Source: a virus. Taken from it: 13,782 nucleotides of DNA. Numbering within the stretch: position 1 is the stretch's first letter; every line of letters begins with the position of its first letter. A program made the translations under genes and the position numbers. The stretch lies in the UHGV virus genome UHGV-0081265, one strand, 5' to 3'. The notes beneath the pieces were generated by a model. It saw only the letters and a program-made list of their open reading frames with translations, was not told the origin of the DNA and did not search any database. Shown piece by piece: positions 1,893-13,782 of the stretch.

Positions 1893-1941
1893 CGCATTCG
1901 TAATGCGAAGGTCGTAGGTTCGACTCCTATTATCGGCACCA
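1893..1941 (+). other. partial tRNA-Thr (thrW-like) 3' segment, 49 nt, ending in CCA; attachment-site remnant, not a complete tRNA gene
   Basis: CGCATTCGTAATGCGAAGGTCGTAGGTTCGACTCCTATTATCGGCACCA matches the anticodon-loop-to-CCA portion of E. coli tRNA-Thr(CGU) as I recall it. The upstream sequence does not continue into the D-arm or acceptor stem. Confidence 0.7.
1925..1941 (+). repeat. 17-bp att core direct repeat, left copy (TCCTATTATCGGCACCA)
   Basis: Identical 17-mer occurs again at 13351-13367. Together they bracket an ~11.4 kb gene set that begins with an integrase. Confidence 0.75.
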
Positions 1942-2053
1942 TCTCTTAGTATTTCCAAGTCATCTCAAATCAACAAAACCCTTTAAAAACATAGATATTA
2001 CGCGATTTTTCGTCATTTGACGTCAACCCCTATCTCTTGAAATCAACATACAA

Positions 2054-2106
2054 TTGGGGGCACAATCGGGGGCATGTTCTGTTCGGTCTAGGAAATGTGC
2101 CCCCAA
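2054..2106. promoter_or_regulatory. GGGGGCA repeat cluster with an 11-bp inverted repeat (TTGGGGGCACA / TGTGCCCCCAA) ending at the integrase start codon; candidate Int arm-type sites and/or start-sequestering hairpin
   Basis: Direct GGGGGCA copies at 2056-2062 and 2068-2074, inverted copy at 2096-2106 abutting the ATG at 2106. Similar GGGGGCAT motifs sit on the other side of the att core at 13269-13292. Confidence 0.4.
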
Positions 2107-3287
2107 TGATGCTGAATGCCCGCAAGGTTGAAGCCGCTAAAGGAAAAGAGAAGAGCTATAAGCTATCTGATGGAGGTGGCCTGTACCTTCAGGTTGAACC
2201 TAATGGCTCGCGTTACTGGCGTATGAAGTATCGTTTTGCTGGTAAAGAGAAGCGCTTGTCCTTTGGTGTCTATCCAACAGTCACCCTCGCAGATGCCAGA
2301 CAAAAACGCGAAGACGCAAAGAAACTACTCGCAGCAGGTGAAGATCCTGGCGAAGTGAAAAAAGCAAAGAAGCATGCTTTAAACGCAGCGACCGAGACAC
2401 TTAACCCATTCAGAGAAGTGGCGTTAGAGTGGCACAAAATGAAATCTCCCAAATGGTCTGAGGGCTATGCTTCAGACATCATTGAGGCGTTTGAGAAAGA
2501 CATTTTCCCGCATATTGGACACAGACCTATAGCCGATATTCAGCCCCTAGAACTACTTGAAGTACTGAGGTTGATAGAAGCACGAGGCGCTATGGAGAAA
2601 GCGAAGAAAGTCCGTCAGCGATGCGGTGAAGTTTTCCGCTATGCCATCGTAACGGGTAGAGCAATCTACAATCCTGCACCGGATCTTGCCAGTGCGATGC
2701 AAGGACATGAAGCAGTCCACTATCCATTCCTCAAAGCCAACGAGCTGCCGGAGTTCTTTACTGCCCTTAACGCTTATTCAGGAAGCCCAATTGTATTGCT
2801 GGGGGCACATTTACTTATCCTGACGGGTCTAAGAACAGGAGAGCTAAGAGCAGGTGAGTGGCGTGAGGTGGATTTTGATAATGCGGTGTGGGAGATTCCC
2901 AAAGAACGTATGAAAATGCGACGTGCTCATATTGTGCCGCTTTCAAATCAAGCATTAGTCCATCTTGAAACCTTAAAAGAACTGACTGGAAACTATCCTT
3001 TGATGTTTCCTGGGCGTAACGATCCAAGTAAGTGCATGAGTGAGGCCAGTATTAATCAGGTCTTTAAGCGTATTGGATATGCTGGCCGTGTTACTGGCCA
3101 TGGCTTCAGACACACAATGAGCACTATTTTGCATGAAAAAGGCTTCAATAGTGCATGGATTGAAACCCAGCTTGCACATTTGGATAAAAATGCTATTCGG
3201 GGGATATACAATCATGCTCAGTATCTTGAGGGGCGTCGGGAAATGATGCAATGGTACAGTGATTTTATTGGTGGAACGGAGTCTTGA
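2106..3287 (+). CDS. int: P4-family tyrosine integrase (start moved to the internal ATG at 2106; the ORF-track start at 2037 is a TTG)
   Basis: N-terminal arm-binding-type region (KLSDGGGLYLQVEPNGSRYWRMKYRFAGKEKRLSFGVYPTVTLADARQKRED) typical of P4-like integrases. Catalytic Arg (LTGLRTGELR), His-x-x-Arg (GHGFRHT) and Tyr (IRGIYNHAQY). Lies directly downstream of the tRNA 3' fragment in the same orientation. Confidence 0.9.
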   Translation: MMLNARKVEAAKGKEKSYKLSDGGGLYLQVEPNGSRYWRMKYRFAGKEKRLSFGVYPTVTLADARQKREDAKKLLAAGEDPGEVKKAKKHALNAATETLNPFREVALEWHKMKSPKWSEGYASDIIEAFEKDIFPHIGHRPIADIQPLELLEVLRLIEARGAMEKAKKVRQRCGEVFRYAIVTGRAIYNPAPDLASAMQGHEAVHYPFLKANELPEFFTALNAYSGSPIVLLGAHLLILTGLRTGELRAGEWREVDFDNAVWEIPKERMKMRRAHIVPLSNQALVHLETLKELTGNYPLMFPGRNDPSKCMSEASINQVFKRIGYAGRVTGHGFRHTMSTILHEKGFNSAWIETQLAHLDKNAIRGIYNHAQYLEGRREMMQWYSDFIGGTES

Positions 3288-3290
3288 GTA

Positions 3291-4079
3291 ATGGCAAATA
3301 ATACTCTCAAGCTTCATCGAACTCATTATAGCATTAGTGAGACCGCTAAAATATTGGGCTGCGATGAGCAAGATGTTATTTATATTGCGGATGAAAAAGA
3401 CATTCCATTGTCGCTAAGAATGTGTGGGCGATGGTCTTTTTCAAAGCATAAAGTAAGAGATGTGGACTCCTTTATTCAGAATATAAACTCTTTGAAAAAA
3501 GACAAAGATGGTTTCAGTTATATATCTGAGTTTAGTTTGATTAAGATTAATGAAGTTAAAAAAGATAAAAAACTAGTGCTGGCGAGTACAAAAGGCTATT
3601 TCCAAATGCCACCAAAGGTTAAAAGTGATTTCGTTTTTTATGAAGGGCAGTTCCCGGAGTACCCATCATTGTTATCTCCTGCTGGTACCACCTATTCTGA
3701 AATGGTCAAATATATTCAAATTGACTGGAAAAATGATGATGGGTTTGGATATGAGGGAGATGCGTACCTGGAGCGGGAAGATGTAAAGAAATTGCATCTA
3801 ATATTAAATGATGATGTTTCTAATGATAAATATAAATCGTTATCAATTGCACAGCAAGAAAGACATGCTACCAAGAGAAATGAGATTCTAAGTGTAGCAT
3901 TATATCTTTATAAAGAGGATATGGCATACCGAAAGGAAAATGCAGCAGCCCTTGCTGACCTTATCTTTAGTCGGGCTGAGGAATTTTGGCCTGATAAAAA
4001 AGAGCCTCCGCTATCACACCCAATTATTAGCAAACTAATATCATCTATATTCAAGAAACCATCATTTACAAAAAATTAA
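3291..4079 (+). CDS. hypothetical protein: N-terminal excisionase/AlpA-type HTH plus ~190-aa domain of unknown function; AT-rich
   Basis: ATG 4 bp after the int stop with RBS GGAACGGAG. Residues ~14-60 (ISETAKILGCDEQDVIYIADEKDIPLSLRMCGRWSFSKHKVRD) resemble the Xis/AlpA helix-turn-helix. Markedly lower GC than the flanking int gene. Followed by a strong terminator. Confidence 0.7.
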   Translation: MANNTLKLHRTHYSISETAKILGCDEQDVIYIADEKDIPLSLRMCGRWSFSKHKVRDVDSFIQNINSLKKDKDGFSYISEFSLIKINEVKKDKKLVLASTKGYFQMPPKVKSDFVFYEGQFPEYPSLLSPAGTTYSEMVKYIQIDWKNDDGFGYEGDAYLEREDVKKLHLILNDDVSNDKYKSLSIAQQERHATKRNEILSVALYLYKEDMAYRKENAAALADLIFSRAEEFWPDKKEPPLSHPIISKLISSIFKKPSFTKN

Positions 4080-4086
4080 CAATTTT

Positions 4087-4121
4087 GGCGAGTAAGGAGA
4101 TTTTTCTTACTCGCCTTTTTT
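4087..4121 (+). terminator. rho-independent terminator ending the int-orf262 transcription unit
   Basis: 10-bp perfect stem GGCGAGTAAG / CTTACTCGCC, 9-nt loop, followed by TTTTTT. Confidence 0.8.
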
Positions 4122-4186
4122 ATATTTTTGAACGATGTTTTAATCCTCTTCGTTGATATAGATTGATACATAGAGAGGAACTCATT

Positions 4187-4387
4187 ATGGGGTTTACTGA
4201 TAATCGTCCTTCTGCTGACTCGCTCATTGATATGAAATTCATTACATCTGATTGTCTTTTTACTGATAAATGGATTTATAAACTGATTTCTCTGGGACGT
4301 TTTCCTAAACCAATCAAGTTAGGTCGTATGTCCCGATGGCGTGCTGGTGACTACTATGCTTGGCGTGATAGTCATTCTTCAGAGTAA
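4187..4387 (+). CDS. alpA: AlpA/Vis-family phage transcriptional regulator / excisionase-like DNA-binding protein
   Basis: Sequence FITSDCLFTDKWIYKLISLGRFPKPIKLGRMSRWRAGDYYAW is the classic AlpA-family HTH motif. Start placed at ATG 4187, 6 nt after RBS AGAGAGGA; the ORF-track start at 4163 is a TTG. Confidence 0.8.
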   Translation: MGFTDNRPSADSLIDMKFITSDCLFTDKWIYKLISLGRFPKPIKLGRMSRWRAGDYYAWRDSHSSE

Positions 4388-4423
4388 AAACATTAGTATT
4401 AGAAGCATTTATGAGGAGTTTAT

Positions 4424-5296
4424 ATGAATTACCGTCTACAACCAGCGGGGAGTCAATACATATCCCTTCCAATTAAGAATGAATATGTTTCCGTGTTAGG
4501 AAACTATAAAGTAAGTCCGTTTAAAGAAACTCATAGCGACACTGCATGTATTGTGCGAATTATTGAAATATTTTCATTGAATAAGCTGCGCGCTAAAGGT
4601 GAAAAGCTGTATTCACTTACGGGGTTAACAGTACCTGATACGGAAGCTGTGGCGAATGAGATCAACCTGCTCCTGAGCCGTTATGCCCAGTTGTGTCGTC
4701 AGGAAGAGGAAGAGTTATCTTTCCGGCAGCGTGAAGTGACAAATGCGGAAGTTGCATGGAAAAGCACATTCTCAAAAAACGGCGTCAGTAGCATTGCTGA
4801 AGCCAAAACGAATAAAACGGGGCATGCTGAACGAGCGGATGCTGAACGGTGTTACCATCTGGCTGTTTCTCGGCTGAATGAGCAACATAGCCGACTGAGC
4901 ACAATCAAGCTTTTACCGGGCGTACTGGTCGATGAAGTTAACTACATTGGTAAGGGAGTTGAGAAGCGTTTACTGAGCATATTTCCTCAATCCGGCCAGA
5001 TCCCTGCTGATTTTATTTCTGTGTTTAATGACAGTGACGTTGTTCGTGATATTAAATTTATTACAGATGCACTCAAATCTTTGTCTGATTCTGTGAATGA
5101 AATTATTAGCCGTTGTAGCGTTCCAACTGATCGTTATGTATTAAATAACGGTGGAATGGCAAGAGCTATGGCTTACAGGGAGTACTATCGAGCAGATAAT
5201 TATGTATTACGTTCAGTCGTTAGTGACCGGGATTATGTTGAGCATGTAATGAAATACAATCGGGTTACTGAGTACAAAAATAAAATCTTTTCTTAA
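4424..5296 (+). CDS. hypothetical protein, 290 aa; possible head-morphogenesis partner of the downstream capsid homolog
   Basis: Good RBS (GAGGAG) before ATG 4424. Sits immediately upstream of the GpN-like gene (23-bp gap). No family recognised by eye. The capsid-related role is inferred from position only. Confidence 0.6.
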   Translation: MNYRLQPAGSQYISLPIKNEYVSVLGNYKVSPFKETHSDTACIVRIIEIFSLNKLRAKGEKLYSLTGLTVPDTEAVANEINLLLSRYAQLCRQEEEELSFRQREVTNAEVAWKSTFSKNGVSSIAEAKTNKTGHAERADAERCYHLAVSRLNEQHSRLSTIKLLPGVLVDEVNYIGKGVEKRLLSIFPQSGQIPADFISVFNDSDVVRDIKFITDALKSLSDSVNEIISRCSVPTDRYVLNNGGMARAMAYREYYRADNYVLRSVVSDRDYVEHVMKYNRVTEYKNKIFS

Positions 5297-5318
5297 ATAC
5301 TAAAAAAGGTGAAAAACT

Positions 5319-6323
5319 ATGTATGCCTTCAAAACTGAAAGGCCGGACGCAGCACGTCGTTATCATAATAAATTCGTCACTGGTACTAACTATCAGGAGG
5401 AATCAAACAGACGCTTTGCATTAAGCGAACCCACTGAAAATATACTGCGTACCTCAATTCTGGAATCCGGGTGGCTTATTAAAAATATCACCCTACGTGA
5501 TGTTAACGCCGTGTCAGGTAATGCCGTCAATATTGGTGCCAGTGAACTGCATACCGGACGTGTGGATGGTGGCCGTTTCCACAAAAAAATGGCAATCAAT
5601 GGTACGGAGTTCTTTCTGACAGAGACGGATACCTGCGCCCGGATCAGCTATTCCGATATGTCTCATATTTACCATACCGGCGTGCCGGATGAGTTTGAGA
5701 AAACGGTTGAGAGCTTTTTTTCCCAGGCATATGCGCTGGACATGCTGCGGGTCGGTTTCAACGGTGTGTCGATTGCAAATACTACAAACCCGGAAATCAA
5801 TAAAAAAGGCGAGGATGTCAATATTGGCTGGCATGCACTGGCGAAAGCTTACGGGAACGGGAAGCAAATCATTTCTGAGCCTGTCACGCTGGGAGAGTCT
5901 GGCACCTGGAAAAACATTGATGCTCTGGCCAACCATCTGATTACTGAGCTTATTGCTGAGCAGTTTCGTGAAGATCCCCGTCTGGTTGTACTGGTTGGGG
6001 CAGAGCTGGCAGCACATCAACGCCTGAAGTTATTTAATGCCGCAGACCGCCCGGCTGATGTGAATGCGGCACAGATGGCGACAAGTTCTGTTGCTGGCCG
6101 CTTTGCGTTTATTCCCCCGTTTATGCCGGGTAAGCGTCTGGTAGTAACGACGCTGGATAATTTGCATATTTACACTCAGGCGATAACACGGTGGTTTCGT
6201 GCTGAGTTTGATGATGAAAACAGTGAATACGTACATTCCTACCTGCGTAATGAAGGCTATGCACTCGGTGAACCTGAACTGTACGCGGCTGTCGATGAGA
6301 GCGCCCTGACGTTTGCTGATTGA
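5319..6323 (+). CDS. P2 GpN-family major capsid protein homolog (HK97-fold capsid protein)
   Basis: 334 aa with RBS AAGGTGA. Several blocks align to P2 GpN as I recall it: ALDMLRVGFNGV vs SLDFIMAGFNGV; DALANHLITELIAEQFREDPRLVVLVGAELAA vs DALVMDATNNLIEPWYQEDPDLVVIVGRQLLA; TTLDNLHIYT vs TKLENLSIYY. Similar length to GpN (357 aa). Confidence 0.7.
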   Translation: MYAFKTERPDAARRYHNKFVTGTNYQEESNRRFALSEPTENILRTSILESGWLIKNITLRDVNAVSGNAVNIGASELHTGRVDGGRFHKKMAINGTEFFLTETDTCARISYSDMSHIYHTGVPDEFEKTVESFFSQAYALDMLRVGFNGVSIANTTNPEINKKGEDVNIGWHALAKAYGNGKQIISEPVTLGESGTWKNIDALANHLITELIAEQFREDPRLVVLVGAELAAHQRLKLFNAADRPADVNAAQMATSSVAGRFAFIPPFMPGKRLVVTTLDNLHIYTQAITRWFRAEFDDENSEYVHSYLRNEGYALGEPELYAAVDESALTFAD

Positions 6324-6336
6324 CTTAGCGACAGAA

Positions 6337-6363
6337 AGACCCGCTCAGAGGCGGGTCTCGTTT
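6337..6363 (+). terminator. putative rho-independent terminator after the capsid-homolog gene
   Basis: 8-bp stem AGACCCGC / GCGGGTCT with 6-nt loop, followed by a short T-tract (CGTTTA). Confidence 0.55.
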
Positions 6364-6520
6364 ACAGCATCAGGAAAAATGAAGAACTATTTTTAAGCAG
6401 AGGCTTAAGCATGCCAGCGTTAATTAATCCAGGCAATCATCAGTTTTCGGTTATAAATTTCTTGCCTCACAAGGAATACGCGGGATATAGTTCAAAGGTT
6501 GCCGCAAAATCGGCAGCCGG

Positions 6521-6786
6521 GCGTAGGAACCCGTGTAATCTAACGGCGACACAACACGCGCCAGGCGTGTTTTTTTGTGTCGTAGCTTTGACTCACCTTC
6601 GTTTTATGGTGTGGTGGCTGACTGCATGTTTTTATTTTTTACGCCACATCATCAGAATTATGGTAGTCCAGGCGGGGCAGCTTTCGGGCTGGCCGGTATC
6701 CGTTAGAGCCGGTATTCCTACCCCCGTCTGGGCTACCACCCATGAGCGTAGGAACTCCGGTGGTAGCGTTACCCGCTATCTAACGG
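6521..6786 (+). ncRNA. P4-type RNA immunity region: two direct repeats (seqA-like 6521-6546, seqC-like 6746-6786) flanking a complementary seqB-like element (6700-6721); candidate CI-RNA-like immunity RNA
   Basis: GCGTAGGAAC...ATCTAACGG occurs twice. Between them, CCGTTAGAGCCGGTATTCCTAC is the reverse complement of both sub-blocks (GTAGGAA and TCTAACGG). An internal terminator (6554-6576) and a 9-bp stem (GCTACCACC / GGTGGTAGC, 6731-6767) are present. Position upstream of the small-ORF/primase operon matches P4 organisation. Confidence 0.45.
6554..6576 (+). terminator. rho-independent terminator inside the immunity region
   Basis: Stem ACACGC / GCGTGT with 5-nt loop, followed by TTTTTT. Confidence 0.7.
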
Positions 6787-6797
6787 AGGTTGCCATT

Positions 6798-7001
6798 ATG
6801 GCTACAGTCCCTGCTTTATCTCACCCTGAATTTACCTTTGTTTTTCTGGCTGTCCGCCGTACAGACCGTGATGCCTGTCCACGTCCTGTGCGTGTAATCG
6901 CAGACTGCGAGCATGCTGCACGACTCAAACTTGCCACTGAATTTATCCTGAGCTTTGCTGCCCGTATCCCTGTGAAAAGCGCCGGGGAGGTGGTTGCATG
7001 A
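6798..7001 (+). CDS. small hypothetical protein (~67 aa), first gene of the replication operon
   Basis: ATG 6798 preceded by GGAGG. This is the C-terminal in-frame part of the 196-aa ORF-track entry, whose upstream part overlaps the terminator and repeats and is probably not translated. Stop overlaps the next start (ATGA). Confidence 0.5.
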   Translation: MATVPALSHPEFTFVFLAVRRTDRDACPRPVRVIADCEHAARLKLATEFILSFAARIPVKSAGEVVA

Positions 7002-7234
7002 AATCCATGAATTTTAAGCAAGGCTGCATATTGAGCGAACTAGGTGAGAGTCGTCTGTTACGGGCGGCACTGGCCAGTGAGTTTCTTGCAGAGGTCCTGT
7101 CCGTTCCCACAGTGAATGGAGCGAGAACTGTTTCAGCGGAAGGCGCTGCGGCTTTAGTGGCCTGTATTGCCGAACAACTGGATGGCGTTGTTAAGGAAAC
7201 CAGCACAATTAAGGGAGTGATGCGCGATGAATAA
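6998..7234 (+). CDS. small hypothetical protein (78 aa), translationally coupled
   Basis: ATG overlaps the upstream stop (ATGA), RBS GGGGAGG. Position is analogous to the epsilon/derepression genes of P4-like elements; no motif recognised. Confidence 0.55.
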   Translation: MKSMNFKQGCILSELGESRLLRAALASEFLAEVLSVPTVNGARTVSAEGAAALVACIAEQLDGVVKETSTIKGVMRDE

Positions 7235-7637
7235 TAATCAAAATTTAAAGGCGCATGCTTTACGAACAGCAGTCTTACGGTACTACATTGCTGATTCATT
7301 CATTTCCTTAATGGAGCGTGTTCATAATGAACCTGTTTATATTGAAGATGGCGAACGAATAGAACTCACCCACGAAAAAGTGGTGAGTAATATTATTTAC
7401 CATATTGAAATGCCGTGGGTGAATGAGTTTGGGGCTGATGCAGGTTGCATACTGGCCGCAGAAAAACTGGAAAAAATGCTTAAACCGGGCTTTATGTCAG
7501 AAAATATTCGCCTGTCAGTTTTTGGTGTCACAGAGATGCGTGAGGTTTACCGGGATATTATTTTCGGTGCACCTGATGGCGAACTACCCGAAGGTTTTGA
7601 GTTTGTGAAGCCGGAAGGTCAGGAGGTGCTGCTGTGA
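7227..7637 (+). CDS. hypothetical protein (136 aa), translationally coupled to the primase
   Basis: Start overlaps the upstream stop. Its own stop TGA overlaps the GTG start of the primase gene. Confidence 0.6.
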   Translation: MNNNQNLKAHALRTAVLRYYIADSFISLMERVHNEPVYIEDGERIELTHEKVVSNIIYHIEMPWVNEFGADAGCILAAEKLEKMLKPGFMSENIRLSVFGVTEMREVYRDIIFGAPDGELPEGFEFVKPEGQEVLL

Positions 7638-10321
7638 AAACACCGTCTGTATCCACGATTTCCGGGGCTGCAATTGGGCGCTGGCCTTATATCCTGTCAG
7701 CATTAGGTATCAAAGTACCGTCCGCAGGACATCATGGGGCTTGCCCTGCCTGTGGTGGCAAAGATCGCTTTCGGCTGGACGATAAAGCGGGGCGTGGGAC
7801 GTGGTTTTGTAATCAGTGCGGTCATGGCGATGGTCTTGATCTGGTTCGTCTGGTGACAGGAAGAAAGATAAAAGAAGTCGCCGGGATGGTATCTGAGGCG
7901 CTTGCATTACCAGAAATACAGGAGAAGCCCGCTTTGCCTGCCAGGAAAAAGGCCGCAGGAAAAGAAGCGGGCGCGGAGCGATATACCAGACTCAGACAGC
8001 AGTCCTGCAATGGTGAACCGGTCTATCTGACAAACAAGGGCTTACATGGGTATTCACTTCCCTTGCTGTCACAGCCTTTGAATCTGGCCGGAATAACATT
8101 TTCCTCCGGTTCATTACTGCTGCCGTTGACGGATATTTCCGGGAATATTACTGGTGGCCAGCTTATCAATCCTGACGGGGATAAAAGTCTGCTGCCCGGT
8201 AGCCAGCTGTCTGGCGCATTCATTGCCCTGACCGATATACCCGCTGAAACACCTGAACAGGTGATTATAACAGAGGGTTTTGCCACGGCGCTTACCGTCA
8301 GTCTGCTGACTGAAGGATGGATCGTGGCGGCTGTTGCTGCCACCAATTTACTGAAGGTGACGGAGCAGATCCGGAAACGCTGGCCGGAAACCCGGATCAT
8401 TCTGGCTGGCGATAATGATCTGGCTGACGGGAAAGAAAACACCGGGCGTATTCAGGCAGAGAAAGCTGCCAAAGCAGTGGATGGCTGGGTAACGCTCCCT
8501 CCGGTACGCCATAAGGCTGACTGGGATGATTATCGGCAGGAAGTGGGGAAAGAACGGGCGAGAGATGCCTTTCGTGAAGAAATGACGCTGCATGGCAAAG
8601 GGCAGACCCGTTTACCAGAAGGGTTCCGGCTGACAAAAGAATATTTGTGGTACGACAAGCTGGTTAATAAGTCTGATGGTGATACGGAGATACGAAATAT
8701 CAAAATTTGCAGTCCGTTACGGGTGACGGCAATCACCAGTGATGCTGATGGAAGTAATTACGGGCGTTTGCTGGAATGGGAAGATACCAACGGAAACAGC
8801 CGTAAATGGGCAATGCCAATGGAGATGCTGGGTGGCAGCGGGGAAGAGCTGCGCCGCGTTCTGCTGGTTAACGGGCTTTCTTACATCAACATTAACGGTA
8901 TGGCCAGAGCATTCCTTATGGAATATATCTCGCTGTGTAAACCGGACAGAAAAGTAACCTGTGTAAATAAAACGGGCTGGCACGGCGGGGTTTACGTTCT
9001 CCAGGATGAAGTGATAGGACGTGAAGCCCAGTCAGTCATCTTACAAACGTCGAGTGTGCAGGGGCGTGATTTTCGTGTCAGCGGTACATCAGAGGACTGG
9101 CGTGAAAATATAAGCCGTTACTGCATAAATAATGCCCGTCTTGCCTTTGCGGTGAGTCTGGCATTTGCTGCCCCCCTTCTGAAACTGGTTGGTATCGGCG
9201 GTGGAGGTTATCACCTCAAAGGGGAATCAACGGATGGTAAAACCACGACGATGAAAGTGGCTGCTTCAGTATGTGGTGGAACAGATTTCTGGCATACGTG
9301 GCGGGCGACGGGGAATGCCTTAGAAGGAACGGCGAGCCGCCGTAATGATGCCACGCTGATGCTGGATGAAATCCGGGAGGTTGACGGCAGGGAGGCGGGG
9401 AATATCGCTTATATGCTGGCTAACGGGCAGGGCAAAGCCAGAGCCAGAACAGATGGTTCGGTAAGGGAAACCAACCGCTGGAATCTGTTGTTTCTGTCCA
9501 CCGGGGAACTGTCACTGGTAGAACATGCGGCAAGCGCCGGGGAACGTACGTATGCCGGGGTTGAGGTCAGAATGATCCAGATCCCAAGCGATTCGGGCAA
9601 ATATGGCGTGTTTGAAGAACTTCATGGCTTCAGTAGCGGGAAAACCCTGGCAGAGCATCTTGAGCAGCATGTAGCGCATTATCATGGCGCACCATTCCGC
9701 GACTGGCTGCATTGCCTGACCGCTGATCTGCCGGAACTGACCAGCCAGGCCAAAGCCTTATTGAAAGAGTACACCCGAAGGCTGACGCCGGAAAATGCCG
9801 GGAATCAGGTTGGCCGGGCTGTTACCCGTTTTGCTCTGGTTGCAATGGCCGGGGAACTGGCCACAAAAGCGGGCATCACAGGATGGCCGGAGGGAGAGGC
9901 CTTTCGTGCCGCCCAAAGTTGTCTGGCTGCATGGATGGCTGACCGGGGCCATACAGCTAATCAGGAAGATAAAGCGGCACTTGAACAGGTACGGGACTTC
10001 ATGACGCGTAATCAGTTCAGTCGGTTTGCTGACTGGAATGACGACAGGAACCGGCCTGTTTCAATGATGGGATTCAGAAAAGTCGATAAAGGAGACAACG
10101 TGACAGAGCCGGTTGTGACGTTCTACGTTCTCCCATCAGGCTGGAAGGAGATCTGTAAGGGATTTGATTCGCGTAAGGTGGCTAGGTTGTGTGTGGACGC
10201 GGGCTGGCTGAAACCCGGTGAAGATGGCCGGACGCAAAACAGCATTCGCCTGCCAGAAATAGGGCTTAAACGTGTGTACCAGTTCAATACGCAGGTACTG
10301 GGAAGCGCCGAACCGGAGTAA
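7634..10321 (+). CDS. P4 alpha-like bifunctional DNA primase-helicase
   Basis: 895 aa. N-terminal zinc ribbon (CPACGG...CNQCGH), TOPRIM motifs (IITEGFATALTVS; ILAGDND), P-loop helicase Walker A (GESTDGKTT) and Walker B (LMLDEIRE). GTG start 8 nt after AGGAGG. Confidence 0.9.
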   Translation: MKTPSVSTISGAAIGRWPYILSALGIKVPSAGHHGACPACGGKDRFRLDDKAGRGTWFCNQCGHGDGLDLVRLVTGRKIKEVAGMVSEALALPEIQEKPALPARKKAAGKEAGAERYTRLRQQSCNGEPVYLTNKGLHGYSLPLLSQPLNLAGITFSSGSLLLPLTDISGNITGGQLINPDGDKSLLPGSQLSGAFIALTDIPAETPEQVIITEGFATALTVSLLTEGWIVAAVAATNLLKVTEQIRKRWPETRIILAGDNDLADGKENTGRIQAEKAAKAVDGWVTLPPVRHKADWDDYRQEVGKERARDAFREEMTLHGKGQTRLPEGFRLTKEYLWYDKLVNKSDGDTEIRNIKICSPLRVTAITSDADGSNYGRLLEWEDTNGNSRKWAMPMEMLGGSGEELRRVLLVNGLSYININGMARAFLMEYISLCKPDRKVTCVNKTGWHGGVYVLQDEVIGREAQSVILQTSSVQGRDFRVSGTSEDWRENISRYCINNARLAFAVSLAFAAPLLKLVGIGGGGYHLKGESTDGKTTTMKVAASVCGGTDFWHTWRATGNALEGTASRRNDATLMLDEIREVDGREAGNIAYMLANGQGKARARTDGSVRETNRWNLLFLSTGELSLVEHAASAGERTYAGVEVRMIQIPSDSGKYGVFEELHGFSSGKTLAEHLEQHVAHYHGAPFRDWLHCLTADLPELTSQAKALLKEYTRRLTPENAGNQVGRAVTRFALVAMAGELATKAGITGWPEGEAFRAAQSCLAAWMADRGHTANQEDKAALEQVRDFMTRNQFSRFADWNDDRNRPVSMMGFRKVDKGDNVTEPVVTFYVLPSGWKEICKGFDSRKVARLCVDAGWLKPGEDGRTQNSIRLPEIGLKRVYQFNTQVLGSAEPE

Positions 10322-10347
10322 TTATCGCGTGAGTCTTATTTTTATGA

Positions 10348-10540
10348 GGTAACACTGGTAACAGAGGTAACGCCCGCTACTGATGCGGTTCTTCAGTGTT
10401 ACCAGTCAAAAATACTGACTGGTAACAGAGGTAACAAAAAATGGTGCGTTACCACGCGTTACCTCTTGATTATGTTAACTGGTAACAGATTAAATCCTTT
10501 TAAATCAATAGCGTTACACGTGTTACCAGTGTTACACGTT
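10348..10540. repeat. iteron array (GGTAACA / TGTTACC heptamers, at least 10 copies, direct and inverted); candidate crr/ori-type binding sites for the primase-helicase
   Basis: Copies at 10348, 10357, 10366, 10397 (inv), 10421, 10430, 10448 (inv), 10457 (inv), 10481, 10522 (inv). 17-bp direct repeat CTGGTAACAGAGGTAAC at 10355-10371 and 10419-10435. 12-bp perfect inverted repeat TGTTACCAGTCA / TGACTGGTAACA at 10397-10408 and 10416-10427. Lies immediately 3' of the primase gene, as P4 crr does; P4 iterons (TGTTCACC) are similar. Confidence 0.6.
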
Positions 10541-10603
10541 CAGAACAAGAGGTAGGGACCCAAATCCCTTCTTCTGGCGGGCAACAGTAAAGGGCACAGA
10601 ACG

Positions 10604-10876
10604 ATGAAGATGATGAGAATGTACTGCCCCACATGTCAGGCAGTAGCGCGGATAGGTAAAACAAACAGGAAACACCCACAACTGTACGATGTGTACTGCT
10701 ATTGCTCTAATGTGGAGTGCGGTCACTCGTTTGTGATGAATGTTGCTTTCTCCCATTCCGTTAGTCCAAGCGCGCTGAACGGGCAGGGGAGGGTTAAAGA
10801 GCTAATTGATGCCATTCCACCCGAGGAGCGGGAAAAGGCTTTAAAGTTGCTGCTGGCTGCGCAAAAGAATGGGTAA
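10604..10876 (+). CDS. Ogr/Delta-family zinc-finger late-gene transcriptional activator
   Basis: Cys spacing C-x2-C-x22-C-x4-C (YCPTCQ...CYCSNVEC) is the Ogr/Delta signature. Size (85-90 aa) is Ogr-like. The true start may be the internal ATG at 10619. Confidence 0.8.
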   Translation: MKMMRMYCPTCQAVARIGKTNRKHPQLYDVYCYCSNVECGHSFVMNVAFSHSVSPSALNGQGRVKELIDAIPPEEREKALKLLLAAQKNG

Positions 10877-11482
10877 AGTATGCGTCGGGAATGGCCGATC
10901 CGTTCCCGGAACCTGACCACAGGATTTCAGTTTATACGAACATAAAATTATTATTTTTCAATTTGTTATGTTTTTCGTATTTCACGAACCTTCATAAAAT
11001 CACACACCTAAAATAAATTATCCATTTAATATCATAGTGTTGCGTATTCAGGCCACAAATGCGACGGACAGTAAAACTGAAAAAAGCTGAATTTCTTTTC
11101 ATTCTTTTCAGTTCCTGCCTCGCAGTGCATCCCCAGCACGGACGCGGGCTGGCGGTATCGTTTGTAAAAAATCACAACTGAAAAATTTTAGTGATATGAA
11201 AACCGCAGGCGGGTGCGGTGTAGTGCGATTTTGGTCTTATAAAGATTTGTGTCTTAAAATTAATTAATGGTTTTAACTATTTGTTTGGAATTAATTTCAC
11301 AATGTACATGTTTGATATGAATGATAAATTAGTATATGCTTGAGTAAAGAAATGATGTATATTTTTATGGTCGAGGTGTAAGCGCTTTTTTGATGTATTT
11401 AATAGGTGTATGTTTTTATTAATCGGAGAATTGTTAATATTTATAATTGTTATAAAATAGAAATCGCTATGAAGGTGTGTAT

Positions 11483-12085
11483 ATGAGAGATAATTCAAAT
11501 AAAGTAAAGGGGTATGTAAGACGTAAAGTTGATTTGTATATTTTGTCATTAGCTATTTTATTTTGTTTTTTTATTTTTATTACAATAAAATTTCCTGTGT
11601 GTTTTGGGGCTAAATGTGAGTTCATTGGCTGGTCTTTGCTGTTGAAAAATAATATTGTTCCCTTGATTTGCGTAGGGTTGCTTTTATATTGTGGGGTGGC
11701 CTACAAAAGGTTTCAATATGACACAAATAAAAGTGTCGAACTTCCAATGAAAATAACAAAAATTGAAAAAATAAATTATGAGCACCTTACCTTTTTAGCC
11801 ACATATATTATCCCATTGATTACATTTGATTTTGAAAAAGAAAGGTATGTGATCGTTCTAGCAGTTCTCTTGATAATTATGGGTATTATTTATATTAAAA
11901 CGGATTTGTTTTACGCTAATCCATCCTTGGCTTTATTAGGGTTTAATATTTATAAGTTGGATGTGAGTATAACAGGAGGTATTAATAAAACAGGGCTAAT
12001 ATTAATTACTAGGCGACAGTTAAAAGAAAATGACATGATAAGTTATATTGTGCTTGATGAAAGAGTTTACTATTCTGGAGATTAA
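11483..12085 (+). CDS. small 4-TM membrane protein (200 aa); first gene of an AT-rich two-gene cargo; KwaA-like architecture, unverified
   Basis: ATG 11483 after RBS GAAGG. Four hydrophobic helices (LYILSLAILFCFFIFITI, IVPLICVGLLLYCGVAY, LTFLATYIIPLITF, YVIVLAVLLIIMGIIYI) then a ~60-aa soluble tail. Very AT-rich. A 10-bp gap separates it from the next gene. Confidence 0.65.
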   Translation: MRDNSNKVKGYVRRKVDLYILSLAILFCFFIFITIKFPVCFGAKCEFIGWSLLLKNNIVPLICVGLLLYCGVAYKRFQYDTNKSVELPMKITKIEKINYEHLTFLATYIIPLITFDFEKERYVIVLAVLLIIMGIIYIKTDLFYANPSLALLGFNIYKLDVSITGGINKTGLILITRRQLKENDMISYIVLDERVYYSGD

Positions 12086-12094
12086 GGATTAAAT

Positions 12095-13078
12095 ATGTCA
12101 CCGCAGCAATTGGATAAAAAAGGCTTGGATGATAATCTAAGTTATTATATTAATAATAAAGATGATATTTCTGTTATTGTTTATGCCATTCTAAAAAATA
12201 GCCCTGTTGCATATCGAATGGATATAGAGGGAAGCGCTCAAGATGGCCTCAAAGAATTATTTTTAGAAAGTATAAAAAATAATATCATTGATAATGATGA
12301 TATCAGTATTTTACCTCTTTCGTCAGCAGATGAAAGAAATAATGTTATTTATCATTACGATATTGAATGGCCTGATGAGTTAACCTCCATGCAAAGTATG
12401 CTTGGGCAGCAAGGGGAGAGTGTTTTTGATTTTAATGTACAAAATATTGAAGATATTAGAGTGTTGCTAATTTGTATTGGTAATGTACAACAACAAATTA
12501 TACTCTACAAAACAATGGCTCCAGTCAATATTTTCTCTCGCTCAGGTTTTTTTCTAAAAAAATCAGCAACAAGACTTGAGGAAATTGAAGATGATTTTTT
12601 TCGAGTTAGTGATAATTTTCAAATTATCAAAGTTGAAAATGATTTATATGTGGTAGATCTTAAGTTAATCGAGAAAATGTTTGGTTTTCACGAGGTTATC
12701 AAAAAAGAGGCTACACTTGGCATGAATGCCATTGAGAGTATGAATATTATCACTGATATAAATGTGATAAAAGAACTAATAGATGATGTAAAATATGCTA
12801 GAAAACTAACAAGGATAGCAAAATCTTCTCCAGTAATATTAGCTAATATTGAAAATGAAAAAATTATAGAGTTTTGTAAAACCTACCCAGTGTTGGTCAA
12901 TAGAATCAGATTTAATGAAGATGGAACAAAGATCGCACTTGACACGAAGGTTTCAAAAGATCTATTTATTAAAATTCTGATGGATGATTTTTTAACCTCA
13001 CAGTTGACTCAATTTTATTATGAGAGTCTAGCAAAAGATGCAGTAAAAATAGCCGCTGATAATACTAAAGAAAACTAA
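12095..13078 (+). CDS. 327-aa soluble protein, second gene of the two-gene cargo; size and context fit KwaB (DUF4868) of Kiwa, but domain not confirmed
   Basis: RBS AAGGA before ATG 12095. Acidic, AT-rich, no TM segment, no obvious nuclease or NTPase motif by eye. Followed by a terminator hairpin. Lies in the variable position next to attR. Confidence 0.65.
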   Translation: MSPQQLDKKGLDDNLSYYINNKDDISVIVYAILKNSPVAYRMDIEGSAQDGLKELFLESIKNNIIDNDDISILPLSSADERNNVIYHYDIEWPDELTSMQSMLGQQGESVFDFNVQNIEDIRVLLICIGNVQQQIILYKTMAPVNIFSRSGFFLKKSATRLEEIEDDFFRVSDNFQIIKVENDLYVVDLKLIEKMFGFHEVIKKEATLGMNAIESMNIITDINVIKELIDDVKYARKLTRIAKSSPVILANIENEKIIEFCKTYPVLVNRIRFNEDGTKIALDTKVSKDLFIKILMDDFLTSQLTQFYYESLAKDAVKIAADNTKEN

Positions 13079-13083
13079 TTAAT

Positions 13084-13109
13084 ATTGTGGTGAGATTATT
13101 CACCACAAT
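13084..13109. terminator. terminator-like hairpin after the cargo operon
   Basis: 10-bp perfect stem ATTGTGGTGA / TCACCACAAT with 6-nt loop in AT-rich context, 6 bp after the stop of the 327-aa gene. Confidence 0.5.
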
Positions 13110-13268
13110 AATATTATCTAATATATTGATTGTGTTTTAAGTGTTTTAATTCTATTGTGAAAAAATTGACTTTGTTTTGATTTGGCAAAATTATAGCTTT
13201 TCTATTACTCACCCTGATGAAATGATCGATTAATCTATCTAGCATGCTGAAGTTACAGCTAAGGTGTA

Positions 13269-13292
13269 GGGGGGGGGCATTTTAGGGGGCAT
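13269..13292 (+). promoter_or_regulatory. G-run / GGGGGCAT repeats adjacent to the right att core; candidate integrase arm-type sites
   Basis: GGGGGGGGGCAT (13269-13280) and GGGGGCAT (13285-13292), same motif as the copies next to the left att core at 2056-2075. Confidence 0.35.
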
Positions 13293-13350
13293 TGATATGA
13301 TTGTTGTATTTTTTTATTAACAAAAACATTGTGTTATCGTTGTATTTTGT

Positions 13351-13367
13351 TCCTATTATCGGCACCA
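13351..13367 (+). repeat. 17-bp att core direct repeat, right copy (TCCTATTATCGGCACCA)
   Basis: Exact copy of 1925-1941 (the tRNA-Thr 3' end). Upstream sequence no longer matches the tRNA, so this is the element-distal junction. Confidence 0.75.
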
Positions 13368-13644
13368 TTAAAATCAAATTGTTACGTAAGATCTTATCAT
13401 TCTCCCACCAAAAAATTATCTTAATGTAACAGCTGGTGTAAGTAAATTCTATCAACGAAGATCAATCTTATCTACTGACCAAAAAGGCCTGATAGGGCTT
13501 CGCTCACTATACATCCTTGGCTGCAGGTTTAGTTGTACACCACTCCTAAATTTAATGTGTTGGCAATGTGTTCAATAAAGCTCGAACAAATTAGCTCATT
13601 ATGATCGGTTAATACTTCAACTTCTGGTTGCATGATTGTTTGTC

Positions 13645-13683
13645 CGTAAAAAGATAACGCGCCTGCCGGGTAGTAGCAGGCGC
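13645..13683 (-). terminator. rho-independent terminator on the minus strand
   Basis: 8-bp stem GCGCCTGC / GCAGGCGC (13659-13666 and 13676-13683) with 9-nt loop. On the minus strand it is followed by GTTATCTTTTTACGG. Confidence 0.5.
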
Positions 13684-13729
13684 ATTACGCAATAGGTAAA
13701 CAAGGGAGGAAGTTCAGAAATGTAAATCG

Positions 13730-13782
13730 GGTAATGACTCCAACTTATTGATAGTGTTTTATGTTCAGATAATGCCCGATGA
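13730..13782 (+). mobile_element. IS1 terminal fragment (left-end inverted repeat); element continues beyond the right edge of the window
   Basis: GGTAATGACTCCAACTTATTGATAGTGTTTTATGTTCAGATAATGCCCGATGA, perfect inverted copy of bases 1-53. Confidence 0.85.

Follow-up and report, generated by a model that had tools for sequence, protein, structure and literature searches.

The 13,782-nucleotide (nt) stretch of the UHGV virus genome UHGV-0081265 that we analysed here as a whole (the window) carries, between positions 6411 and 7001, a compact module composed of a promoter-like site, a leader RNA with its own terminator, a C4-type antisense RNA, three recognition regions of which one is complementary to the other two, and a small open reading frame (ORF) related to kil of phage P4. 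Very probably, this module is the RNA switch for immunity (lysogeny maintenance) in a P4-like satellite prophage of Escherichia coli, homologous to the PLE-seqA-t1-cI-seqC-kil region of P4. At the level of sequence, this assignment has its basis in homology, RNA family, predicted fold, three-way complementarity together with covariation, geometry, and ORF conservation. All features of the module lie on the plus strand.

A repeat search found GCGTAGGAAC as a direct repeat at 6521-6530 and 6746-6755, and ATCTAACGG as a second one at 6538-6546 and 6778-6786. Between the two copies, positions 6700-6721 (CCGTTAGAGCCGGTATTCCTAC) are the reverse complement of both repeat halves. For the composite pattern GTAGGAA-N5-30-TCTAACGG, the 13.8-kb window has three matches (plus strand, 6523-6546 and 6748-6786; minus strand, 6700-6721), with 0.00 matches expected by chance and none of 200 dinucleotide-preserving shuffles containing any. 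An earlier note on this DNA had claimed two direct repeats flanking a complementary element, all of which are thus present, far beyond chance, at these coordinates. The proximal, seqA-like target copy (6521-6546) holds box a1 (GTAGGAA, 6523-6529) and box b1 (TCTAACGG, 6539-6546), 16 nt apart from start to start, and the distal, seqC-like copy (6746-6787) holds a2 (6748-6754) and b2 (6779-6786) at a distance of 31 nt. In the seqB-like recognition region (6699-6721), the corresponding boxes are b' (CCGTTAGA, 6700-6707) and a' (TTCCTAC, 6715-6721); throughout, the three copies are complementary to each other without mismatch. Box b2 overlaps the Shine-Dalgarno (SD) sequence GGAGG (6785-6789) of the next gene, the very ribosome binding site (RBS) that had been described at the end of the seqC-like copy and whose overlap amounts to the last two bases of that copy; the complementarity to b' in the distal copy extends to 6787, inside the SD.

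The RNA is followed, as first translated gene, by a Kil/Icd-like ORF of 67 amino acids (aa) at 6798-7001. It scores 66.9 bits against the NCBIfam model phage_ICD_like (cut-off 25) and is 51% identical (E = 8e-17) to the 65-aa P4 ORF at the same position, which the literature names Kil. This is the first downstream ORF of the earlier note, whose place next to the RBS stands and whose start codon had to be corrected to 6798-6800, given that 6798-7001 translates cleanly. In the same frame, a long ORF of 196 aa (6411-7001), the counterpart of P4 eta, begins upstream of the promoter and spans both RNA elements, the kil-like ORF being its 3' end; this nesting parallels that of the kil and eta genes in P4 (PMC10111431). 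In RefSeq, the entire 196-aa ORF is a 'host cell division inhibitor Icd-like protein'; neither of the RNAs is annotated there, and the Icd model covers only residues 141-188 of this ORF. Besides, PHROGs labels the Kil/Icd families 'transcriptional repressor' (phrog_1743), a label probably inherited from the old annotation of a P4 'cI protein'.

Downstream, two small ORFs (6998-7234 and 7227-7637) and a primase/helicase gene (7634-10321) follow with overlapping start and stop codons. The location just upstream of small ORFs and a primase gene, as previously described for the repeats, was hence borne out, and the resulting operon (6998-10321) is presumed, by its position only, to be under immunity control. 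The primase carries the Pfam domains Zn_Ribbon_Prim, Toprim_3, and DUF927, and its N-terminal 317 aa share 39% identity with the alpha protein of P4. The two small ORFs belong to phrog_38507 and phrog_5991, to which no function is assigned, and neither had an Ant, KilA, or Bro match in Pfam, NCBIfam, or PHROG.

Promoter, leader RNA and antisense RNA

A sigma-70 promoter-like site at 6462-6491 (TTGCCT-18-TATAGT, 9/12 match) is the homologue of P4 PLE, with both the -35 and the -10 block conserved in the pairwise alignment of window and P4, and the transcription start predicted from it (~6498) falls on position 1 of the isrK model. Scanned against Rfam at gathering thresholds (GA), the window gave exactly two matches, both full length and both inside the module. 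The first is an isrK-family leader RNA at 6498-6575 (RF01394; 71.8 bits vs. GA 50; model positions 1-77/77), equivalent to the seqA leader of P4, and the second a C4-family antisense RNA at 6656-6743 (RF01695; 81.0 bits vs. GA 45; model positions 1-87/87; E = 5.5e-15), the homologue of the P4 CI RNA. P4 itself gives the same pair of matches in the same order, and the equivalence of C4 with CI RNA and of isrK with the seqA leader has been stated in the literature (PMC3632133, PMC4825925).

In the isrK consensus structure, box a1 resides in the loop of hairpin 2 and b1 in the single-stranded spacer that precedes the terminator. When the isrK leader is folded alone, its stability is not significant (z = -0.98) and its single-sequence minimum free energy (MFE) structure deviates from the model in the 5' part; it is the covariance model that supports the leader, and not thermodynamics. 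Promoter and antisense RNA are separated by an intrinsic terminator at 6553-6576, composed of a 7-bp GC-rich stem (6553-6571) and a T7 run (6570-6576), in agreement with the internal terminator previously claimed at 6554-6576. It is kept in the alignment with P4, with one compensatory change in the stem, and is by position the counterpart of the P4 terminator t1, the name and role of which are reportedly given in Briani 2000. Promoter and terminator are both predictions, made at the sequence level only.

The C4-like RNA is strongly structured. A 17-bp closing stem (6661-6677/6722-6738) encloses two hairpins, the MFE is -47.8 kcal/mol (z = -5.08; none of 200 shuffles equally stable), and folding reproduced the structure of the Rfam model independently. 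Hairpin 2 carries box b' in its loop and a' falls into a single-stranded linker, leaving both boxes unpaired in the fold as well as in the model.

Among phage records, BLASTN placed the P4 cI region first by query coverage (6483-6878; 71.2% identity; E = 3e-49). In the pairwise alignment, both RNA scaffolds are almost invariant and the boxes have changed in a compensatory manner in all three copies. The a box of both targets reads GTGAGAA in P4 and GTAGGAA in the window, and the a' box of the RNA TTCTCAC and TTCCTAC, respectively; likewise, the b box of both targets is TTCACAGG in P4 and TCTAACGG in the window, and the b' box CCTGTGAA and CCGTTAGA. The folding, the covariance-model search, and the alignment with P4, which the earlier note had named as checks, all speak for its proposal of a P4-style seqA/seqB/seqC immunity module, supported as this is by the homology to P4 and by the C4 and isrK matches.

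The state of the module also bears on whether it might be an inactive relic, i.e. part of a defective prophage in which the RNAs no longer function. Insertion sequence (IS) elements flanking the element in the matching E. coli genome would be in line with such decay, but the three copies are perfectly complementary, both Rfam models match at full length with high scores, and promoter, terminator, SD, and the kil and eta frames are intact. Near-identical copies (≥95% identity over ≥80% of the query) are moreover found in 448 of 5426 complete E. coli genomes, and we regard a relic as very unlikely.

Pairing and covariation across the family

Related loci were collected with a scaffold pattern in which both boxes were given as N. 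Species-representative genomes and IMG/VR each contributed at least 120 loci, and 222 unique regions with full flanks, among the matches listed, formed the family sample. The complement of a locus' own a' box was present upstream in 217 and downstream in 218 of the 222 loci, as compared with 3.1% and 0.01%, respectively, for non-self boxes. For b', exact 8-mer complements were found upstream in 159/222 loci (0.7% non-self) and downstream in 171/222 (0.4% non-self), and nearly all b' boxes have partners on both sides within one mismatch. Of 102 single mismatches, 80 are U·G or G·U. Such a predominance of G·U mismatches argues for RNA-RNA pairing and is not expected of repeats that act at the DNA level.

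This last result also bears on the view that the repeats are DNA operators of a protein repressor, or that they coincide by chance. An ORF spans the region, after all, and the old P4 and RefSeq annotations (repressor or Icd-like) as well as the 'transcriptional repressor' label of phrog_1743 could be cited in favour of an operator. Yet the middle copy is inverted and falls exactly into the loop and linker that a strongly structured RNA leaves unpaired, and the immunity factor of P4 is an RNA according to the literature (PMC4825925, PMC3632133). We rejected both the operator and the chance reading, to which we attach a negligible probability, since mismatches that are mostly G·U have a meaning only for RNA pairing and since 0.00 matches of the composite pattern were expected.

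The geometry of the module is conserved, too. Of 212 loci, 178 have an a1-b1 spacing of 16 nt, and of 214, 156 have an a2-b2 spacing of 31 nt, the window being identical in both respects. An SD-like motif lies at b2 in 200/214 loci, with a start codon downstream in 212/214, and a run of five or more T follows within 45 nt of b1 in 198/212. That pairing at the seqC-like copy could hide the RBS, as suggested in the earlier note, fits both this conserved overlap and the kil/eta model of P4 (PMC10111431). The kil frame is open for at least 300 nt upstream, through both RNAs, in 155 of 215 loci, as opposed to 3 and 24 loci for the other frames. Of 168 related loci, 107 have a primase gene downstream, and 98 of these 107 primase-bearing loci combine the open long frame with a kil-like ORF of 55-85 aa.

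On the invariant scaffold, the boxes themselves differ widely: we counted at least 17 distinct a' boxes, at least 44 b' boxes, and at least 92 loop/linker combinations, with a change in one copy invariably accompanied by changes in the other two. Among the matches listed, 11 of the 17 a-boxes are paired with more than one b-box, and the b-box of the window occurs with three different a-boxes, that of P4 included. As judged from these combinations, the specificity of immunity may be re-assorted in a modular fashion.

Covariation additionally uncovered an alternative helix near seqC. The spacer segment GGTGGTAGC between a2 and b2 (6759-6767) and the 3' strand of the closing stem of C4 (6732-6740) are complementary, and across 140 distinct seqC regions the two segments covary, with 96.3% of cells paired. 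Double changes occur in 6 of the 9 pairs and cover 127 cells; the covariation score is 0.372, as compared with 0.204 for shuffles, none of 500 of which reached 0.372, and controls in which the helix was slid along the alignment were 18-52% paired. The alternative helix and the C4 closing stem are mutually exclusive, and formation of the former would put a2 into a hairpin loop. It is a candidate co-transcriptional switch, which may set the excision of the antisense RNA against the exposure of the kil RBS, or it may be the structural basis of the atypical terminator t4 of P4. A local fold of the same region, in which a spacer hairpin is combined with a CUCCG/CGGAG helix that covers the SD, is less well supported. 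Its a2-b2 hairpin GGUAGCG/CGCUAUC is only 65% paired in the family alignment, where the quality of the loop alignment is probably limiting, and the SD-sequestering helix CUCCG/CGGAG is 87% paired and almost invariant, and hence covariation says little about it. We propose, as a tentative idea of which we are far from convinced, that these systems follow a modular two-box code with frequent re-assortment, giving rise to many heteroimmune satellites and phages, in combination with a switch formed by the alternative helix; such an arrangement is possibly undescribed.

Proposed mechanism and host element

In P4, CI RNA is matured from the leader (RNase P, PNPase), and CI-dependent premature termination involves t1, t4, and the Rho-dependent timm. 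Processing, termination, and immunity of this phage were reportedly worked out by Sabbattini in 1995, Forti in 1999, and Briani in 2000. For the element in the window, what we assume on RNA processing and termination, on the phenotype of immunity, and on the override by eta is inferred from work on P4, P1, and Gifsy-1. Following these examples, the constitutive promoter at 6462-6491 would start a leader at ~6498, and part of the transcripts would end at 6553-6576, yielding an isrK-like RNA of ~77 nt with target copy 1. Read-through transcripts would carry the C4/CI-like RNA (6656-6743), to be excised as a stable RNA of ~70-80 nt, with b' presented by a hairpin loop and a' by a single-stranded linker. 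Pairing of this RNA with copy 1 on nascent leaders would enhance termination at t1 and, by the same token, autoregulate the RNA, and pairing with copy 2 would cover the SD of the kil/icd-like ORF. With kil untranslated, transcription would come to a premature end before the primase operon and the prophage would stay quiescent; a superinfecting element with the same boxes would be repressed as well. Translation of the eta-like ORF from upstream transcripts, in turn, would override this control.

Several points weigh against an immunity switch of this kind. The dynamic steps assumed for the element all go by analogy, and the balance of leader conformers is uncertain, as the MFE structure of the whole leader prefers cis pairing of seqA with seqB over the C4 fold. 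The C/G ratio is 2.6 in the first 40 nt of kil and unremarkable beyond, and with the excess of C over G limited to these 40 nt, a Rho-dependent site is not evident from the sequence. Besides, the module lies downstream of a P2-family capsid gene and a terminator-like hairpin, whereas its upstream neighbour in P4 is the alpA-like ORF88. The replicase shares with P4 alpha only the N-terminal primase domain, its C-terminal part being DUF927. None of sid, psu, and epsilon is annotated in the element, unlike in P4. Given these P4-unlike surroundings, it is not established here that a 'late' promoter upstream drives eta translation. Altogether, the P4-style reading of the earlier note holds in a refined form, in which the boxes differ from those of P4, the replicase is partly P4-like, and the mechanistic steps are borrowed from related systems.

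Folding of the whole leader (6498-6812; MFE -133.8 kcal/mol, z = -5.96) deserves a closer look in this regard. In the MFE structure, seqA pairs with seqB in cis and the C4 fold is lost, while the centroid structure retains the latter. The predicted cis fold is consistent with a conformational switch like 'structure A/B' of Gifsy-1, and it is shared by a scheme in which activation of the isrK type is the main function: the short leader RNA, ending at 6576 and equipped with target copies, would act as a decoy or anti-antisense RNA in trans, bind the C4-like region on the long transcript, open its structure, and switch translation of the first ORF on, making the module primarily an inducer, not a repressor. 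The full-length isrK match with its own terminator fits such a scheme. In Gifsy-1, compensatory mutants demonstrated that the seqA equivalent pairs with the C4-like region in cis as well as in trans and activates downstream translation (PMC4825925), and IsrK-like elements of P4-like prophages were required in a transposon-directed insertion site sequencing (TraDIS) screen of S. Typhi (PMC3632133). On the other hand, P4, the direct homologue at 71% identity, has been assigned repression by CI RNA, which its genetics place at seqA and seqC (PMC4825925, PMC10111431), and a pure decoy does not require the overlap of distal copy and SD that is seen in 200/214 loci. Activation as the main function is therefore improbable in our eyes, with roughly the standing of an outsider. 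Activation and repression are not mutually exclusive, though, and activation is more likely to form an additional layer on top of a repressing immunity switch.

As for the element that hosts the module, the chromosome of E. coli AH04 holds an element to which positions 1896-13570 of the window are 100% identical, and 1779 of 5426 complete E. coli genomes contain matches. Of P4-like core genes, it has a tyrosine integrase (2037-3287), a weak match to AlpA (ORF 4163-4387), the primase, and an Ogr/Delta zinc finger (10604-10876). A P2-family major capsid gene is also present (5319-6323; Pfam Phage_cap_P2, E = 4.8e-67), directly upstream of the module, and the satellite may build capsids from its own capsid protein instead of redirecting that of a helper. 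Within region 4424-6323, the 290-aa ORF before the capsid gene had no match in Pfam, NCBIfam, or PHROG, and the unassigned ORFs of the element had none in Pfam or PHROG. A GC-rich hairpin (6333-6356; GACCCGC-TCAGAG-GCGGGTC) followed by TCGTTT is situated past the capsid stop codon and before the start codon of the eta-like frame. As it could limit read-through from upstream, the hairpin bears on the existence of an immunity-insensitive upstream transcript.

The replicase (7634-10321) is a mosaic of an alpha-like primase N-terminus and a DUF927 domain that takes the place of the helicase part of alpha; among 168 related loci, no more than 15 have such a C-terminal domain downstream of the module. 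Past the Ogr/Delta gene, the element encodes the Kiwa defence pair kwaA/kwaB (11477-13078; PADLOC, KwaA E = 4.4e-83 and KwaB E = 2.6e-131), an anti-phage system at the position of a defence hotspot known from the literature on P4-like elements. Two ORFs on the minus strand, one resembling a second tyrosine recombinase (731-1834, as judged by eye from the translation) and the other a membrane protein (32-721), are absent from the AH04 locus. Both ends of the window (parts of 1-1895 and 13562-13782) correspond, in opposite orientations, to one ~53-nt stretch that lies at the edge of the IS1 annotated in AH04.

In summary, the module is a known, Rfam-curated kind of system with other boxes than those of P4, that is, a predicted specificity variant in a common satellite prophage of E. 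coli. Understanding of this system dates back to the 1990s, and only the family-wide box code and the alternative helix might be new. For annotation, it matters that region 6411-7001 encodes an immunity switch and that its last 67 codons alone match the Icd/Kil model. Box sequences could be used to predict mutual exclusion among P4-like satellites. The fixed scaffold moreover comes with dozens of natural two-box antisense regulators that are probably orthogonal and could serve synthetic biology as well as an understanding of satellite competition.

Comparison with known systems

Among the closest known systems is P4, which shares with the window the promoter blocks, the terminator past copy 1, the three-way complementarity, the overlap with the SD, a Kil homologue (51%), the long eta-like frame, and the primase operon downstream. 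The leader between t1 and the antisense RNA is 29 nt shorter in the window than in P4. The boxes of seqA, seqB, and seqC are not identical to those of P4, which leaves family membership unaffected and is relevant for specificity. Cognate duplexes of the window are predicted at -12.7 (b) and -9.3 kcal/mol (a), within a range of -9.2 to -13.2 kcal/mol for cognate pairs overall, as opposed to -2.4 to -3.7 kcal/mol per box for cross-pairs with P4 in either direction. Because both boxes differ from P4 in all three copies and cross-pairing is weak, the element is predicted to be heteroimmune to P4, with probably neither repressing the other.

The immI system of P1 and P7, with its c4 antisense RNA, a'/b' boxes, a1b1 and a2b2 targets, and the icd and ant1/2 genes, is said to have been described by Citron and Schuster in 1990 and 1992. 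It belongs to the same RNA family (RF01695) and follows the same two-box logic: one transcript carries the RNA with a target on either side, the distal target overlapping the RBS of an Icd-like ORF, as in the window. Besides, the heteroimmunity between P1 and P7 arises from box differences, like that predicted for the window and P4. Still, the cargo of the window is a replication operon in place of the P1/P7 antirepressor, its element is an integrated satellite, not a plasmid prophage, and no ant gene was found downstream of icd in the window. P1 was not among the best 25 of 111 phage records that BLASTN returned for the module, and its relation to the window accordingly rests on RNA-family membership.

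One may nevertheless ask if the RNA in the window does no more than prevent the Icd-like ORF and coupled genes from being translated, in the manner of c4-icd-ant in P1 and N15-like prophages, and has no part in termination or replication. The shared C4 family and the Icd-like ORF directly past copy 2 would agree with this, as would the fact that the isrK and C4 pair adjoins icd in PY54 and is found inside an 'Ant' coding sequence (CDS) in a Stx phage, and c4 RNA is known to repress Ant synthesis in P1 (PMC8546580). However, the window is without an antirepressor and has two small ORFs and a primase downstream, as in P4, an intrinsic terminator is conserved past copy 1, and the homologous module of P4 works through termination. 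We thus consider control of translation only to be even less probable than activation as the main function, and favour a P4-style immunity switch.

By sequence, the RNA parts of the N15-like linear plasmid prophages PY54 and phiKO2 are closer to the window than those of P4 (83-86% identity). In PY54, icd follows the isrK and C4 pair as it does here, but the module has the partition genes on one side and the protelomerase gene on the other instead of preceding a primase operon. A further relative is the IsrK/STnc1160 (orf45)/AnrP system of the lambdoid prophage Gifsy-1, in which an isrK leader with its own terminator likewise precedes a processed C4-like RNA, and whose leader:C4-like pairing has been proven by compensatory mutants both in cis and in trans (PMC4825925). 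Its outcome, though, is the activation of an antirepressor-like protein and an antiterminator, whereas the cargo in the window consists of Kil/Icd and replication genes; neither an AnrP antirepressor-like gene downstream nor antQ nearby was found in the window. With the isrK and C4 pair also present at icd in PY54 and inside the 'Ant' CDS of the Stx phage, the module is a mobile regulatory cassette that comes with different cargos, and which in the present element is of the P4 (replication) type and not of the P1 (antirepressor) type.

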